From the NCBI GenBank assembly GCA_022009775.1, contig CP091723.1, forward strand, positions 223,382 to 287,381: a DNA stretch of 64,000 bases, given 5' to 3'. Below the pieces are notes generated by a model, which was not told where the DNA came from, did not search any database, and saw only the letters and a program-made list of their open reading frames with translations. The translations under genes were made by a program, and so were the position numbers. This stretch comes from Christensenella sp. Lineage in GTDB: Bacteria > Bacillota > Clostridia > Christensenellales > CAG-917. Below, in pieces: positions 2,103-9,740 of the stretch (position 1 is its first letter; every line of letters starts with the position of its first letter).

Positions 2103-3065
2103 TTATTCTTTGTCTTGGTTGGATCCTTCGTCCGCGGATTCGTTGTTTTCACTGCCAATCGAATCGTCTTTTTGCTCGCTGTCCGTGCCACTTGCCTGTT
2201 GTTGCAAGGACGCAAGATATTCTTGCGCAAGACGACGCTTTTCTTCGTCCGAAAGGCTGTCCACCGTCACCACTTGTTGAGCTTGCACCTTGCGTTGATT
2301 TTCAAGCTTTGCAATGACAATGGTGCGGATAAGCACAAATGCGTAGATCACAAACAAAAGTATGAGCGGAAGCACGACCACGCAGAAGAAACGCACTTTT
2401 TGGCTTGCGCCGAAGTGTTCGGTGTCCTGAATCCAGTTGGAGAAACCGCCCACGCCTTTGAGCATTTTGCCGCTTGTGAAAGTGCCGTCTTCATTCACAC
2501 TGCCCCACGTTGCGACAATTGCGCTTGGTTGTACATAGTCGCGGTCGATGTCGCCGATGATATTTTTATCTTGCTCGCTTTCTTCTTTGAGCAATTCTGC
2601 AGCAGCAGCTTGCCAAGATCCTGTTTGATTGTCACCACGAGTTCTGAAACTTGTCACAGCACCTGCATCGTTTCTGTTGATAGCAACGATTCTGTGGGTG
2701 TTGAACACTTGATAACGTCCCGAAGTCGTTACAGCAATCGTCTTAAACGTCACGACTTGACCGACTTTGAGCGTTGCCACATCCTTTGAGTCGAATGCCT
2801 TGGCAATTATGACGTCGTCGGACGAGAACGTGGGAGCCATAGAGTCGGTGGCGACGTTGAGATAAATCTTGTCACCGAATCTTGTGAGATGATCGTCATT
2901 GGTTGCGCCGGCGATTGTGAAAATCGCGACCACCAAAGCGAACACTATGACAACGATGCAAACGCCCGTCGCAACCCAGTTGAGAATGGATCTGACCTTC
3001 TGTTGCTTTGGAGAGAGTTCTTTTTTCTCTTTCGCTTTTTGAGCGAACTTTTCTTTGAGATTCAT
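2103..3065 (-). CDS. sipW: Signal peptidase I, SipW/archaeal-ER type (S26B), with long C-terminal extension, second TM and acidic tail
   Basis: N-terminal TM, catalytic-Ser box VATDSMAPTF, FNTHRIV (His) and TRGDNQ box. Start chosen at MNLKEKF (3065). Confidence 0.8.
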   Translation of the reverse strand: MNLKEKFAQKAKEKKELSPKQQKVRSILNWVATGVCIVVIVFALVVAIFTIAGATNDDHLTRFGDKIYLNVATDSMAPTFSSDDVIIAKAFDSKDVATLKVGQVVTFKTIAVTTSGRYQVFNTHRIVAINRNDAGAVTSFRTRGDNQTGSWQAAAAELLKEESEQDKNIIGDIDRDYVQPSAIVATWGSVNEDGTFTSGKMLKGVGGFSNWIQDTEHFGASQKVRFFCVVVLPLILLFVIYAFVLIRTIVIAKLENQRKVQAQQVVTVDSLSDEEKRRLAQEYLASLQQQASGTDSEQKDDSIGSENNESADEGSNQDKE

Positions 3066-3421
3066 GATAAACCTGCCTGATTGATGCTTCTCCGCTTCCG
3101 CCCGAGACTTATTGCCACACACCGCGCCAAAAGCGCAGCCGAGAGATCAGCGAATGACTATTGACGTCGTGCGAGCCATGCTTGTTGCCCTTAAACGGAT
3201 AATATCCGCTTCACTCGCCCGATTTTGCTGAAACGCATAGTTATACAACTATACATATTGTATTGTAACTTATCGCGCGCACGATGTCAACAGCAAAAAT
3301 CGCAAAACCGCCCAAAATCATCCGAAAATCTTCCCCAACCGCCCGATCTCGCCCATATTGCGCGCTTTTTCTCTTTTAAGTGGTTTACGCAGAGTTGCGA
3401 TCATAAGTCGCAACTCTGCGT

Positions 3422-3928
3422 AAAGCCGTCCTTTTGCCACAAACGGAAAGCCTATTCGGGGCGTACTTATAAACGGAATGTGTGACTTCGAAGACGGATT
3501 TGGAGCCGCAAGGCGGCGACCGTATCGAACGCCGAGCTTGACGATAAGTACGAGCGACTGCGCCATGTTGTTGCGTAGCCGGCGCACAAAGCGTGGTGGC
3601 ATAATGAGAGAATGGCACTTATTTATGCGAGTGCTGAGTGTTGTCCCCCGCCACGCGGTCACCGTGGGTTCCCTTGCAAGGGGGAACGGTGATAGGGAAA
3701 ACACCTGAGGAAAGGGGAAAGTTGCATTAAAGTTTGCACACCCAAACCACACTCTCACTTGCAGAACAGAACAAAACAAAAAAATAAATTTAGGGATAAG
3801 GTTTTTGAAAGGGGCTTTATCTCGATAAGGAGAAAAACGATGAAAAAGAAAGGTTTGATTATATCAACAGTCGTCATGGTTGTTGTGCTGATCGCATCTC
3901 TCACCACCGCTACTTACGCTTGGTTTAC
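3422..3928 (+). repeat. Left arm of the ~505-bp inverted repeat. Contains L-element copy 2 (core 3548-3731), 5' UTR/RBS and the first 29 codons of CDS 3840-4862.
   Basis: Reverse complement of 7584-8087. The only differences seen are a T4/T3 run, a 3-nt GCA indel (~3761) and an A7/A8 run. Confidence 0.95.
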
Positions 3929-7672: not shown

Positions 7673-8087
7673 CGTTTTTCTCCTTATCGAGATAAAGCCC
7701 CTTTCAAAAACCTTATCCCTAAATTTATTTTTTTTGTTTTGTTCTGTTCAAGTGAGAGTGTGGTTTGGGTGTGCAAACTTTAATGCAACTTTCCCCTTTC
7801 CTCAGGTGTTTTCCCTATCACCGTTCCCCCTTGCAAGGGAACCCACGGTGACCGCGTGGCGGGGGACAACACTCAGCACTCGCATAAATAAGTGCCATTC
7901 TCTCATTATGCCACCACGCTTTGTGCGCCGGCTACGCAACAACATGGCGCAGTCGCTCGTACTTATCGTCAAGCTCGGCGTTCGATACGGTCGCCGCCTT
8001 GCGGCTCCAAATCCGTCTTCGAAGTCACACATTCCGTTTATAAGTACGCCCCGAATAGGCTTTCCGTTTGTGGCAAAGGACGGCTTT
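7584..8087 (-). repeat. Right arm of the ~505-bp inverted repeat. Contains L-element copy 3 (core 7779-7962), 5' UTR and the first 29 codons of CDS 6464-7672.
   Basis: Reverse complement of 3422-3928. Confidence 0.95.
7722..7751 (-). promoter_or_regulatory. Candidate sigma-A promoter between L-element copy 3 and paralogue B
   Basis: Minus strand reads TTGAAC-18 nt (A-rich)-TAAATT. The equivalent site upstream of paralogue A has a 3-nt insertion and an A7 run instead of A8, which changes the spacing. Confidence 0.3.
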
Positions 8088-8597
8088 GCGACAAGTTTGT
8101 CGCAAAGATTGGATAGCTCCGATCGCTGTGTGGCAAAGGTTGGCTAGCTCCGCAAGCTGTTTGTGCCACTGCACTGCTCCACTCTCAATGTTCGTTGACT
8201 GCTCGTGTGCGCACGCATTGCGTGCGTGGGCGTGCGATATAGTCATTTATACGAAGATTATAAGTCTTTTATGCATTTCTGTCAACATACAAAATGAAAA
8301 GTTTCTAACATTTTGTAGTTTTTTGTCTAAAACACCCCGTTTTCAAAGCGATTTGTATGATTATGGAGCATTTTGTATGATTTTTCTTCGTAATTTTTAT
8401 GCAATTTTACGCATTGTCTTGCATATTTTTTGATTGTTTGCAAAGATTTATACACGTTATACGACAAATATACTTATTTTATAGATTTATCGCATACACG
8501 CTCGCACACGTGCGCTCCTGCGCAAAGATTTTTTAATCTTTTGACAACAAATTTTAATATTTGTTGTCAATTTGCGCGGTTTCGGCATTATAGCGGA

Positions 8598-9740
8598 TCA
8601 ATACGCCGTGAAGTTCAAGCCGATTTTGCAATATCCGCCAAGGCGCGCGTCGATGCAGTCAAAGTCGCTGCCTTCAAGCCATATACACACATAGCAATAC
8701 ATGATGTCACCTTTGTCCATCGTGGTGCTGCGCTTGAACACATAGTCCTTGTCATAGTACGGCGTGGTGGCAAAGTAGCCCCCTTCTATCGCTTGCGCAT
8801 AGCTGTCGCTGTCTGCGTACATGTCGTTCTCGTATTTGAGAAGGTCAAAGCTCGCATTGTCCGAGCCGAGCGGATATGCAACGTATTCCACAAAGCCGTC
8901 TTCCTTGGTGCGACGTTGACCAACCTTGTCATCGCCTTCTTTGAGCTCGACTCCGTTGTATACGTCACCCACCTTCCAATAGTTCACGTTTGTGCCGTAG
9001 AGACGTTGATTGTTGCTCAATGCGGCATACACTTTGACGTCAGTCTTGCGTGTTTCGTCAAGAGTCTCGTTCTTGAAGCTCTCGCCCCACATCACACGCA
9101 CGGCGTTTTGCAGGTCGAATTTGTCGTAGGCAAGCGTCATCTCATAGTCGATATTCGTATTGTCAGAACCCGTGTTCTTCAGCATAAACGTGAACCTGAT
9201 AAACTTCTCGCCGTTCATCTCGCCAAGCTCCACCTTGTCCGCCGACAACATCTGCTTCACTTCCGAAATCGTGTGCAACGGCTCTCTGCCGTACACCTTG
9301 TTGTAGGACACGTCCCACATATGCTCCGGACCGTTGGCGTTGAGATACGGCGTCCAATACTCGTTGTCAATGGACAGAGATATCGACTTTTCGCGATTGT
9401 TGCTGCTTGCCGTGATACGCACGTTGTTCTCTTGGATGAAAAGCAACATCACGTACACAACGCTCGTAACGATAAGCGAAAACACGAGCAAGATCAACAT
9501 CACGCGCTTGAGCTTGCGACGGCTTTCTTCTCGCTTCACCTTTTTGGACGCAACTATAGAGTCTTCCCACTCCTTTTTCAGTTGGGATTGCGACTTCTTG
9601 GCGTCGCGGGCGGATTTGCCCGATTTGGCAGACTTTTTCGACTTTTTGTCTTCAACGGGCTGCTCTGCGGCTTGCTCGCCGACTTGCTCGTCGTTGACCG
9701 CTTGCTCGGTCTGCAAATTTTTCTCTTCGTTTTCGCTCAT
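8598..9740 (-). CDS. Distant paralogue C: long charged N-terminal tail, single TM, same C-terminal module (TapA-like anchor/accessory candidate)
   Basis: TM VMLILLVFSLIVTSVVYVMLLF followed by IQENNVRITAS (compare WFTSQAQATVDDLTITT). C-terminus CIWLEGSDFDC..YCKIGLNFTAY matches paralogues A and B. Confidence 0.7.
   Translation of the reverse strand: MSENEEKNLQTEQAVNDEQVGEQAAEQPVEDKKSKKSAKSGKSARDAKKSQSQLKKEWEDSIVASKKVKREESRRKLKRVMLILLVFSLIVTSVVYVMLLFIQENNVRITASSNNREKSISLSIDNEYWTPYLNANGPEHMWDVSYNKVYGREPLHTISEVKQMLSADKVELGEMNGEKFIRFTFMLKNTGSDNTNIDYEMTLAYDKFDLQNAVRVMWGESFKNETLDETRKTDVKVYAALSNNQRLYGTNVNYWKVGDVYNGVELKEGDDKVGQRRTKEDGFVEYVAYPLGSDNASFDLLKYENDMYADSDSYAQAIEGGYFATTPYYDKDYVFKRSTTMDKGDIMYCYVCIWLEGSDFDCIDARLGGYCKIGLNFTAY

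Follow-up and report, generated by a model that had tools for sequence, protein, structure and literature searches.

A conserved Clostridia gene cluster combining SipW-type signal peptidases, a McrB-like NTPase and hypervariable secreted proteins

A 64-kb stretch of DNA from Christensenella sp. (contig CP091723.1; the whole stretch is called the window, and its numbering is used below unless another locus is named) carries a gene for a SipW-type signal peptidase (peptidase 1) close to genes for three paralogous proteins, here termed A, B and C. This arrangement raises the question of whether the locus is one more SipW-dependent fibre operon or a part of a different system. A first-pass annotation of the sequence had described a tapA-sipW-tasA-like locus, and the open reading frames (ORFs) of the peptidase and of A, B and C that it listed were all recovered at the same positions (Table 1). 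When the proteins of the window were mapped onto 57 loci from a genome scan (L-numbers denote the loci of relatives; L058 belongs to a close relative with DNA 91-94% identical to the window), the flagged genes turned out to form the right half of a cluster that is conserved in Clostridia and comprises seven or more genes, and not a three-gene operon. The best explanation, to which we assign a probability of about one half, is that the cluster serves to export and assemble hypervariable surface subunits by a dedicated SipW-type system, and what it builds is most likely a variable polymer on the cell surface.

Gene order, peptidase and paralogous proteins

In the 57 loci scanned a recurrent gene order was observed, consisting of an EAL-domain protein, C, one to three genes of the A/B type, peptidase 1, an AAA+ protein resembling McrB, a protein with a DUF2357 domain, and a second signal peptidase (peptidase 2). 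What had been taken for a tapA-sipW-tasA-like locus is a fragment of this larger cluster with its AAA+, DUF2357 and second peptidase genes. The peptidase gene adjoined the McrB-like AAA+ gene in 34 of the 35 loci in which a peptidase was present, the sole exception being cut by a contig end; this adjacency, together with extreme purifying selection on the AAA+ gene, indicates that the latter is not a casual neighbour, and an origin as a restriction-system insertion was rejected on the same grounds. The EAL gene adjoined C in 18 loci and was absent from more distant versions of the cluster. Polyprenyl synthase and xseAB, the housekeeping genes beside the cluster in the window, also flanked it in L125. 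The cluster loci came from metagenome-assembled genomes (MAGs) labelled Acutalibacteraceae, Christensenella, Ruminococcus, Lachnospiraceae, Pseudoflavonifractor and Bacilli, and no published description of a SipW-type peptidase with McrB, DUF2357 or an ATPase cluster was found in a literature search.

The components of the cluster differed widely in their conservation. The AAA+ protein, the most conserved of them, was ~100% identical between the window and L058, 96-99% identical in other close relatives and 83-85% identical in more distant Clostridia, and the gene contained 65 nucleotide (nt) differences from that of L058 with only two amino acid (aa) differences. The corresponding identities, in the same order of relatives, were 84%, 62-84% and 39-44% for peptidase 1, 97%, 56-63% and 33-41% for C, and ~41%, 34-51% and 28-53% for A/B. 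The contrast indicates that the machinery is under strong purifying selection, and that the secreted subunits are in rapid turnover.

An alignment of 17 cluster peptidases contained invariant S75-M76, T123-H124-R125-I126 and G144-D145, which correspond to the SMAPT, THR and GDN motifs from which peptidase 1 had originally been recognised as an S26B enzyme. The catalytic Ser75, His124 and Asp145 were invariant in all 17 sequences, as was a proline in the C-terminal transmembrane (TM) helix, and no conserved lysine was present in this alignment, unlike the bacterial Ser-Lys dyad. A profile of the cluster peptidases matched human SEC11A/SEC11C at E ~1e-14, and bacterial Ser-Lys type I signal peptidases (SPase I) only at E values of at least 0.0017. 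Against TIGR02228, the model of archaeal-type SPase I with a cut-off of 51.85 bits, the window peptidase scored 39.8 bits, which is below the cut-off; its orthologue in L016 (53.7 bits), the second peptidase of L016 (66 bits) and a distant 189-aa version in L044 (105.5 bits) were all above it. The matches of the window peptidase to TIGR02228 and NF046067 both had E ~1e-10, under the cut-offs of the two models. Together, these results place peptidase 1, by sequence, among the S26B (SipW/SEC11-type) signal peptidases as a divergent, extended enzyme. The enzyme had been described as about 130 aa longer than a typical SipW, with a second TM segment and an acidic tail; the acidic tail was upheld, and the TM segment is not an extension, because short 189-aa SipW-like members have the same C-terminal helix. 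What peptidase 1 truly has in addition is the acidic tail and a pair of insertions within its catalytic domain. A tail motif, LSDEEK(R/K)(R/K)L..EYL, was common to both cluster peptidases and is located after the C-terminal TM helix (2103-2330 in the window; 11332-12105 in L016), where it is a candidate docking site.

The first 30 aa of A and B were identical (MKKKGLIISTVVMVVVLIASLTTATYAWFT) and were followed by divergence. The signal ends in T-Y-A↓W-F-T (the arrow marks the expected cleavage site), for which the counterpart in TasA is T-W-A↓A-F-N. Among 233 family members the signal peptide was the best-conserved part of the protein, with a mean top-residue frequency of 0.88 at residues 1-20 and at least 80% conservation of both LTTATYAWF and the N-terminal 29 aa, compared with 0.2-0.5 in the body. 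The initial description of a textbook SipW-cognate signal in A and B is supported by the resemblance of its end to that of TasA, and not by TIGR04088, the profile discussed below, which returned no match for the N-terminus of A. C, in agreement with its first description apart from the length of the tail, has a K/E-rich tail of ~78 aa and a single TM helix, and lacks a small-x-small cleavage site.

All three proteins carry a C-terminal module of the form WxEGxDxxC ... KIxLxF. BLASTP related A to C (E = 2e-6) and B to C (E = 1e-4), and hhalign aligned the A family with the C family over 63 columns at 92.7% probability (E = 4e-7). A hidden Markov model (HMM) of the A family, made without B and without the signal peptide, matched B at 1.4e-7 over ~125 positions and C at 7e-7. 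As judged from these sequence comparisons, the shared module is homologous, beyond chance resemblance, as had been proposed. For the A family 581 word-indexed relatives were found, with 2,039 representative sequences at 50% clustering, and for the C family 166 relatives; almost no relative of either family has a Pfam domain or a name. The signatures (T/S)ATYAWF(T) and W(I/L/V)EGxDxxC recurred in loci of Ruminococcus, Lachnospiraceae, Pseudoflavonifractor and Clostridia MAGs, and also in distant C-like proteins, in which a charged N-terminal tail and a TM helix take the place of the cleavable signal. For annotation, the family can be recognised by two signatures, TYAWF closing the signal peptide and WxEGxDxxC close to the C-terminus. 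Two of 120 listed C homologues (P0142 and P0149) had a precomputed match to PF28211.

Partner genes, recombination and repeated elements

The McrB-like protein consists of 505 aa in L016 and L058, with N-terminal TM segments followed by an AAA+ domain. The L016 orthologue matched AAA+ chains of E. coli McrB (6HZ4) at E = 1e-7, and on NF008457 the AAA+ protein scored 32-35 bits, relative to a cut-off of 637. In the window the gene comprises an ORF at 297-1598 and an out-of-frame N-terminal piece extending to 1813, the frameshift near 1751 corresponding to a 1-nt deletion relative to L058 (GGGATCGG versus GGGTATCGG). The large partner gene in relatives encodes 898-996 aa with a DUF2357 (McrC-N-like) domain and a ~550-aa E/K-rich region, and neither a nuclease domain nor a PDB relative was found for this protein by sequence searches.

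The EAL protein is a single chain of 594-611 aa in relatives, made up of an EAL domain, a linker and aromatic/Gly repeats, and is split in the window near 11577 by a 1-nt deletion in an A-run (A6, versus A7 in L058). The EAL domain scored 66.7 bits in orthologues and was borderline in the window fragment (31.6 versus 31.3). Residues read by eye (DAF for EAL, SAFGEE for DDFGTG, R for K) suggest that the protein is inactive as a cyclic di-GMP (c-di-GMP) phosphodiesterase. The EAL gene keeps its position beside C in close relatives; the link to c-di-GMP that had been drawn from this neighbour is weakened by the degeneracy of the domain, by the frameshift in the window and by the absence of the protein from distant clusters. 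Sequencing error, decay (pseudogenisation) and phase variation are all conceivable causes of the frameshifts at ~1751 and ~11577. At its C-terminal end (10358-10700) the EAL protein contains aromatic/Gly repeats of the form G.WVD.DGNV..GYFD..G.W, with direct repeats at 10478-10561 and 10592-10675, and these match EAGR-box models weakly (E = 0.007-0.02). The EAGR box is known from Mycoplasma terminal-organelle proteins.

Three features of the locus had been missed by the first-pass annotation: a long inverted repeat, a cassette with an Abi_2 gene, and a structured RNA repeat in three 5' untranslated regions (UTRs). From the upstream region through the 5' UTR to codon 30, A and B were 100% identical within each genome (window and L058), and in both genomes identity fell to ~50% exactly past codon 30, that is, after the signal peptide. 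In the window this results in a perfect inverted repeat of ~495 nt flanking 3.65 kb, and the counterpart in L058 measures ~225 nt. Complete identity followed by a drop after the signal peptide is a signature of gene conversion, and an inverted repeat of this kind could possibly allow RecA-mediated inversion, by which the bodies of A and B would be swapped between upstream contexts.

A and B are convergent, with a low-GC cassette between them (4958-6325, GC content 0.37). Its two genes, Abi_2 and a gene for a 205-aa protein, were also found as a pair in this slot in L005 and L125, and in L058 it holds two other unannotated ORFs. The cassette is probably cargo that lies outside the core of the cluster, and the slot between A and B behaves, from its gene content, like a cargo hot-spot.

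A structured RNA repeat of ~255 nt was located upstream of A, B and C in their 5' UTRs. No Rfam match was obtained, either for the whole window at gathering thresholds or for positions 1-12600 at E <= 1. A covariance model identified 101 copies in the sequences searched, which included 65 metagenome contigs from a motif scan; copies were present in L002, L005, L007, L008, L011, L018, L058 and L060-L125, and several contigs of one assembly together carried at least nine. In an alignment of 97 distinct copies fitted to the model, 92.2% of cells paired, compared with 34-57% when the partners were slid, and double changes occurred at 33 of 56 pairs, compared with at most 15 after sliding; no shuffle reached the observed values. 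Conserved single-stranded blocks were UUCGAAGACGGAA, AGUACGA, GUGGCAUAAUGAG and a purine-rich 3' tail. The repeat occurred in both orientations, was present or absent between close strains (it was missing upstream of A' and B' in L058), and was mostly located beside housekeeping genes (tilS, topA, gyrA/parC-type, pepP and amylase, among ~100 gut metagenome copies). A riboswitch or leader specific to fibre genes was rejected on the basis of this distribution and by the absence of an Rfam match, and a phage-borne origin was rejected, as viral contigs contained no matches. The element looks like a dispersed structured intergenic repeat, and its distribution suggests that it is possibly mobile. 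One of its positions was conserved in ten loci of relatives, with a sense copy directly past the stop codon of the AAA+ gene. To the left of the AAA+ gene the window is not collinear with these relatives: they have the sense copy and then the DUF2357 gene, and the window has a convergent copy truncated by its own edge.

Further conserved elements were observed in the leaders of A and B. A hairpin just upstream of a conserved box (AAAGCCGTCCTTTTGCCACAAACG) was located at 3388-3418 (+) and ~8084-8105 (-) in the window and at ~8440-8470 and ~4620-4650 in L058, and its sequence varied by copy and strain with pairing retained (GCAGAGTTGCGA...TCGCAACTCTGC, TTTGCGACAA...TTGTCGCAAA, ACGCGAAAAAGTC...GACTTTTTCGCGT). 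The ~70 nt 5' of the start codons of A/B-type genes (3766-3839, and 7673-7746 on the minus strand) were 78-92% identical across many genomes and contained two GGA-rich motifs as well as a 9-bp hairpin, GGGATAAGG...CTTTATCTC, beside the ribosome-binding site, an arrangement suggestive of conserved control of translation. The promoter match upstream of the B leader (Table 1) lies in a region with 94% identity in L058.

Outside the cluster proper, four tRNA genes are located on the minus strand at 12428-13220, one of which is duplicated by a 217-nt direct repeat (12613-12829 and 12867-13083, 97% identical). In L125, three 23S_rRNA_IVP (PF05635) genes are scattered around the cluster at 3352-4278 and 8419-8889, one of them between C and A.

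Table 1. Features of the locus in the window, and copies of the RNA repeat elsewhere in it
Feature	Position	Strand	Description
RNA repeat, 5'-truncated at window edge	1-212	+	Convergent with the AAA+ gene
McrB-like AAA+ gene	297-1813	-	TM-anchored, GTPase-type; core member of the cluster; weak AAA_5 and McrB matches
Peptidase 1	2103-3065	-	320 aa; extended S26B signal peptidase I, C-terminal TM helix, acidic cytoplasmic tail
Sigma-70-like promoter match	3262-3290	-	TTGACA-17-TACAAT, upstream of peptidase 1; consensus scan only
Inverted repeat, left arm	3430-3928	+	Upstream region, RNA element, proximal 5' UTR and first 30 codons of A
RNA repeat, A 5' UTR	3480-3734	+	cmsearch 295.9 bits; absent at the A' site in L058
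Paralogue A	3840-4862	+	Secreted beta-rich subunit; conserved signal peptide; C-terminal WxEGxDxxC-type module
Terminator-like hairpin	4888-4923		16-bp palindrome between A and the Abi_2 gene
Abi_2/AbiD-like gene	4958-5704	-	Pfam Abi_2 E = 2e-7; PADLOC AbiD
205-aa gene without family match	5708-6325	-	In cassette with the Abi_2 gene
Paralogue B	6464-7672	-	Second secreted subunit; signal peptide as in A, body divergent
Inverted repeat, right arm	7584-8080	-	Upstream region, 5' UTR and first 30 codons of B
RNA repeat, B 5' UTR	7776-8030	-	cmsearch 295.9 bits
Perfect sigma-70 consensus	8257-8285	-	TTGACA-17-TATAAT, upstream of the B leader; 12/12 matches in consensus scan
Paralogue C	8598-9740	-	Cytoplasmic tail rich in K/E, single TM helix, beta-rich ectodomain with the shared module at its end; candidate anchor or nucleator
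RNA repeat, C 5' UTR	9810-10065	-	Copy also in L058
Degenerate EAL protein	10358-12186	-	EAL domain, linker and aromatic/Gly (EAGR-like) repeats; two overlapping ORFs here (10358-11611, 11464-12186)
RNA repeat between efp and spoIIIAA	21409-21666	-	
RNA repeat after yajC	47781-48035	-	
RNA repeat between ruvA and ruvB	52488-52742	-	

A proposed assembly route and its alternatives

From the gene content and its conservation we infer the following route. A and B would be exported via their highly conserved Sec-type signal peptide and cut past T-Y-A by the cluster's own S26B (Ser-His-Asp) peptidases. TasA, which has Phe at P2', is reported to be a poor substrate of the housekeeping-type LepB of E. 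coli owing to aromatic residues close behind its cleavage site, and to be cut in B. subtilis by the dedicated SipW (PMC10269814). The new N-terminus (WFTTSAS...), which is of low confidence in the structural model, would probably be taken up by an adjacent subunit as a donor strand, in the manner of TasA, BsaA and AbpA, and the A/B subunits would then polymerise at the cell surface; donor-strand exchange is the likely assembly route shared with the TasA/BsaA systems (PMC9674648, PMC10151520, PMC11580942). The uncleaved C would stay in the membrane, with its conserved cytoplasmic helix inside and its beta module outside, and could serve as a base or nucleator. The earlier comparison of C with TapA is retained with respect to the uncleaved membrane form; similarity to TapA itself was not found, as C had no match to a TapA model in Pfam/NCBIfam scans, and the analogy is functional only. 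The membrane-bound McrB-like NTPase, its DUF2357 partner and peptidase 2 would be parts of the same machine, in which the NTPase and DUF2357 protein may dock on the LSDEEKRRL..EYL tails of the peptidases and so couple nucleotide hydrolysis to processing or assembly, and a c-di-GMP input may come, in close relatives, from the degenerate EAL-EAGR protein. Surface variation would result from the fast evolution of the subunit bodies, with gene conversion keeping the promoter-proximal region and the signal codons identical. A more far-reaching version of this proposal, namely that the cluster encodes a new Gram-positive surface-filament machine in which tailed SipW-type peptidases sit on a McrB-like/DUF2357 motor, C is a homologous TM anchor and recombination between homogenised 5' cassettes provides variation, is considered unlikely; were it true, the machine would be related to TasA-type assembly, otherwise chaperone-free, and coupled to NTP.

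Structural models were obtained for A and C with AlphaFold2. The A model was all-beta (pLDDT 86.7, pTM 0.84), with a predicted helix ending at residue 22 and followed by the SPase I-type T-Y-A site, pLDDT below 50 at residues 20-37, and a low-confidence first strand at 35-44. The C model (pLDDT 79.9, pTM 0.69) contained a long helix at 44-100 and then a beta domain. Non-significant Foldseek matches for both models were beta-sandwich and jelly-roll folds, and those for C included CanA, AbpA (probability 0.41) and the donor-strand-complemented FaeG, which we regard as hints and not as evidence. No Pfam, NCBIfam or PADLOC family was found for A, B, C or ten distant homologues, and the A profile matched no sequence in the PDB.

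Several observations weigh against an export and assembly system of this kind. Peptidase_M73, NF046066, TIGR04089 and TIGR04090 did not match A, B, C or the ten distant homologues. TIGR04088 (cut-off 19 bits), on which the N-terminus of TasA scored 41.9 bits, did not match the N-terminal 55 aa of A at E <= 10, a search in which the HMMER filters drop most matches above ~0.1, so that T-Y-A-W-F-T resembles the core of this model by eye only. Comparison of the A and C profiles with TasA by hhalign gave probabilities below 0.5%, and Foldseek comparison of the A and C models with the PDB gave no match at E <= 1e-3, the TM-scores being 0.1-0.3. Polymerisation of A and B is a deduction from the genes. 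In L003 and L013, flanks of at least 5 kb contain neither a peptidase nor an AAA+ gene. The window ends just past the AAA+ gene and lacks the genes for the DUF2357 protein and peptidase 2; their absence, together with the frameshifts in the AAA+ and EAL genes, implies that the window copy may be degraded or rearranged, or may contain sequence errors. Pairs of McrB and DUF2357 proteins are, moreover, usually a mark of defence islands, and the locus itself includes an Abi_2 gene.

Three other explanations were considered. In the first, which we consider unlikely, A, B and C would be very divergent members of the TasA/BsaA/camelysin jelly-roll group in an ordinary SipW biofilm-matrix operon, so that their family would be no novelty, and the AAA+ and DUF2357 genes would be unrelated neighbours. 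A SipW-type peptidase does adjoin, the signals end in T-[YW]-A-x-F, CanA and AbpA occur among the weak Foldseek matches, and the C-terminus of A (LDQIQLVIYLAG...KIGLFFGAQ) aligns with FDQVQMEIQFK...SIKLQFSFEATQ of TasA; this was, however, the only hhalign match, with a probability of 0.3% (E = 0.23). None of ~15 cluster proteins matched a TasA, BsaA or camelysin model, and the TasA control, whose sequence was verified against PDB entries 8AUR and 5OF1, scored a strong 513.8 bits on TasA-family models. TasA chains were absent from the top 50 Foldseek matches of both the A and the C model, and an AAA+ gene found beside the peptidase in 34 of 35 loci under extreme purifying selection is at odds with its being an unrelated neighbour. 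The module had originally not been recognised as TasA/camelysin (M73), and HMM searches with A, B and C, together with hhalign and Foldseek searches for A and C, placed none of them in that or any other characterised family. The further suggestion of an undescribed fibre or pilin-like class is supported in so far as no curated family was found, and not in its fibre part, for which Foldseek and hhalign gave no significant link to TasA, pilins or other solved filament proteins; as an undescribed class, A, B and C stand as far as the tools used here can tell.

About equally improbable is the second explanation, in which A, B and C are surface or wall proteins that do not polymerise (adhesins, coat or S-layer-like proteins, or phage-receptor decoys) and use dedicated peptidases, their variability reflecting immune or phage pressure. 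Hypervariable bodies between conserved ends would be expected of such proteins, and the weak Foldseek matches of A were mostly carbohydrate-binding modules and domains of Gram-positive adhesins. SLH, LPXTG and cell-wall-binding domains were not detected in A, B or C in Pfam and NCBIfam scans, however, and in the monomer model of A the first strand behind the cleavage site is poorly positioned. A TM-anchored paralogue that shares its terminal beta module with secreted paralogues has also been kept from Christensenellales-like genomes to Ruminococcus and Lachnospiraceae, and a TM-anchored paralogue with multiple secreted ones is the layout expected for a base plus subunits.

A conflict or defence system built around the McrBC-like NTPase, with the membrane and secreted parts as sensors or effectors and the fibre analogy misleading, is very unlikely: the McrB-like AAA+ and DUF2357 proteins, a match of the AAA+ protein to the PADLOC candidate PDC-M26A (2.9e-36), the Abi_2 cassette and the genome-specific gene content between A and B would fit it, but defence islands are normally patchy, and here the chromosomal position beside xseAB and polyprenyl-synthase genes is the same in relatives, gene order is kept across distant Clostridia, the NTPase is almost invariant and has TM segments in place of the N-terminal DNA-binding domain of McrB, sequence searches detected no nuclease domain in the DUF2357 protein, and there was no further PADLOC match.

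Relation to known systems

The preferred reading, a SipW-type export and assembly system, can be placed among four groups of known systems. With type IV pilins and archaeal class III signal peptides, the A/B proteins share a short K-rich leader, a glycine and a highly conserved hydrophobic stretch (MKKKG|LIISTVV...), conserved ends, a variable centre and an ATPase encoded nearby. In contrast to those systems, no prepilin peptidase, PilB/PilC-type ATPase or platform gene was found in the cluster, and the body of A is all-beta and not a 'lollipop' of helix plus globular head; a type IV pilin identity of A and B was discarded because of the missing pilus genes, the short helix and the SPase I-type site that follows it. 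McrBC likewise pairs a McrB-type AAA+ protein with a DUF2357-domain protein. The AAA+ protein of the cluster differs from McrB in its TM segments, as noted above, and the pair as a whole differs in its location between signal-peptidase genes and in a partner with a long E/K-rich region and no detected nuclease domain. If the proposed role is correct, this would be the first McrB-type AAA+ module recruited to envelope biogenesis.

Archaeal AbpA bundling pili and CanA cannulae resemble the cluster as proposed here in that subunits of the jelly-roll type are secreted, undergo cleavage of the SPase I type and polymerise by donor strands without a chaperone, and the likeness of AbpA and CanA to C was non-significant by Foldseek (E = 0.06-0.16, TM-scores 0.14-0.33). 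These systems have no McrB-like partner, unlike the cluster. Archaeal TasA-like systems also have no dedicated peptidase gene nearby (PMC9245690).

The closest parallels are found in tapA-sipW-tasA of B. subtilis and sipW-bsaA-bsaB-bsaC of C. perfringens. These operons likewise have a dedicated S26B peptidase gene beside secreted beta-rich substrates, signals ending in T-aromatic-A followed by aromatic residues, and several paralogous substrates with a proposed anchor or nucleator accessory. Relative to TasA and BsaA, the substrates of the cluster are larger (340-400 aa) and have neither a model match nor a significant fold match, and they are hypervariable, with gene-converted 5' ends; C, unlike TapA, is a TM protein whose C-terminal part has its homologues in the subunits. 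The cluster further adds two tailed peptidases, a TM-anchored McrB-like NTPase and a DUF2357 protein. By analogy, then, the cluster would work like the TasA/BsaA systems, although searches for membership of that family were negative and extra conserved components are present. SipW-dependent matrix fibres (TasA, BsaA) are the main model of protein scaffolds in Gram-positive biofilms, and their assembly is thought to be energy-free, so that an energy-coupled or gated step, if real, would be new for SipW-type systems. The cluster ties SipW-type peptidases to a near-invariant membrane NTPase and to subunits whose rate of variation matches that of flagellins or pilins, and, if these subunits polymerise, it would provide abundant gut commensals with an uncharacterised and probably immunologically relevant surface structure.

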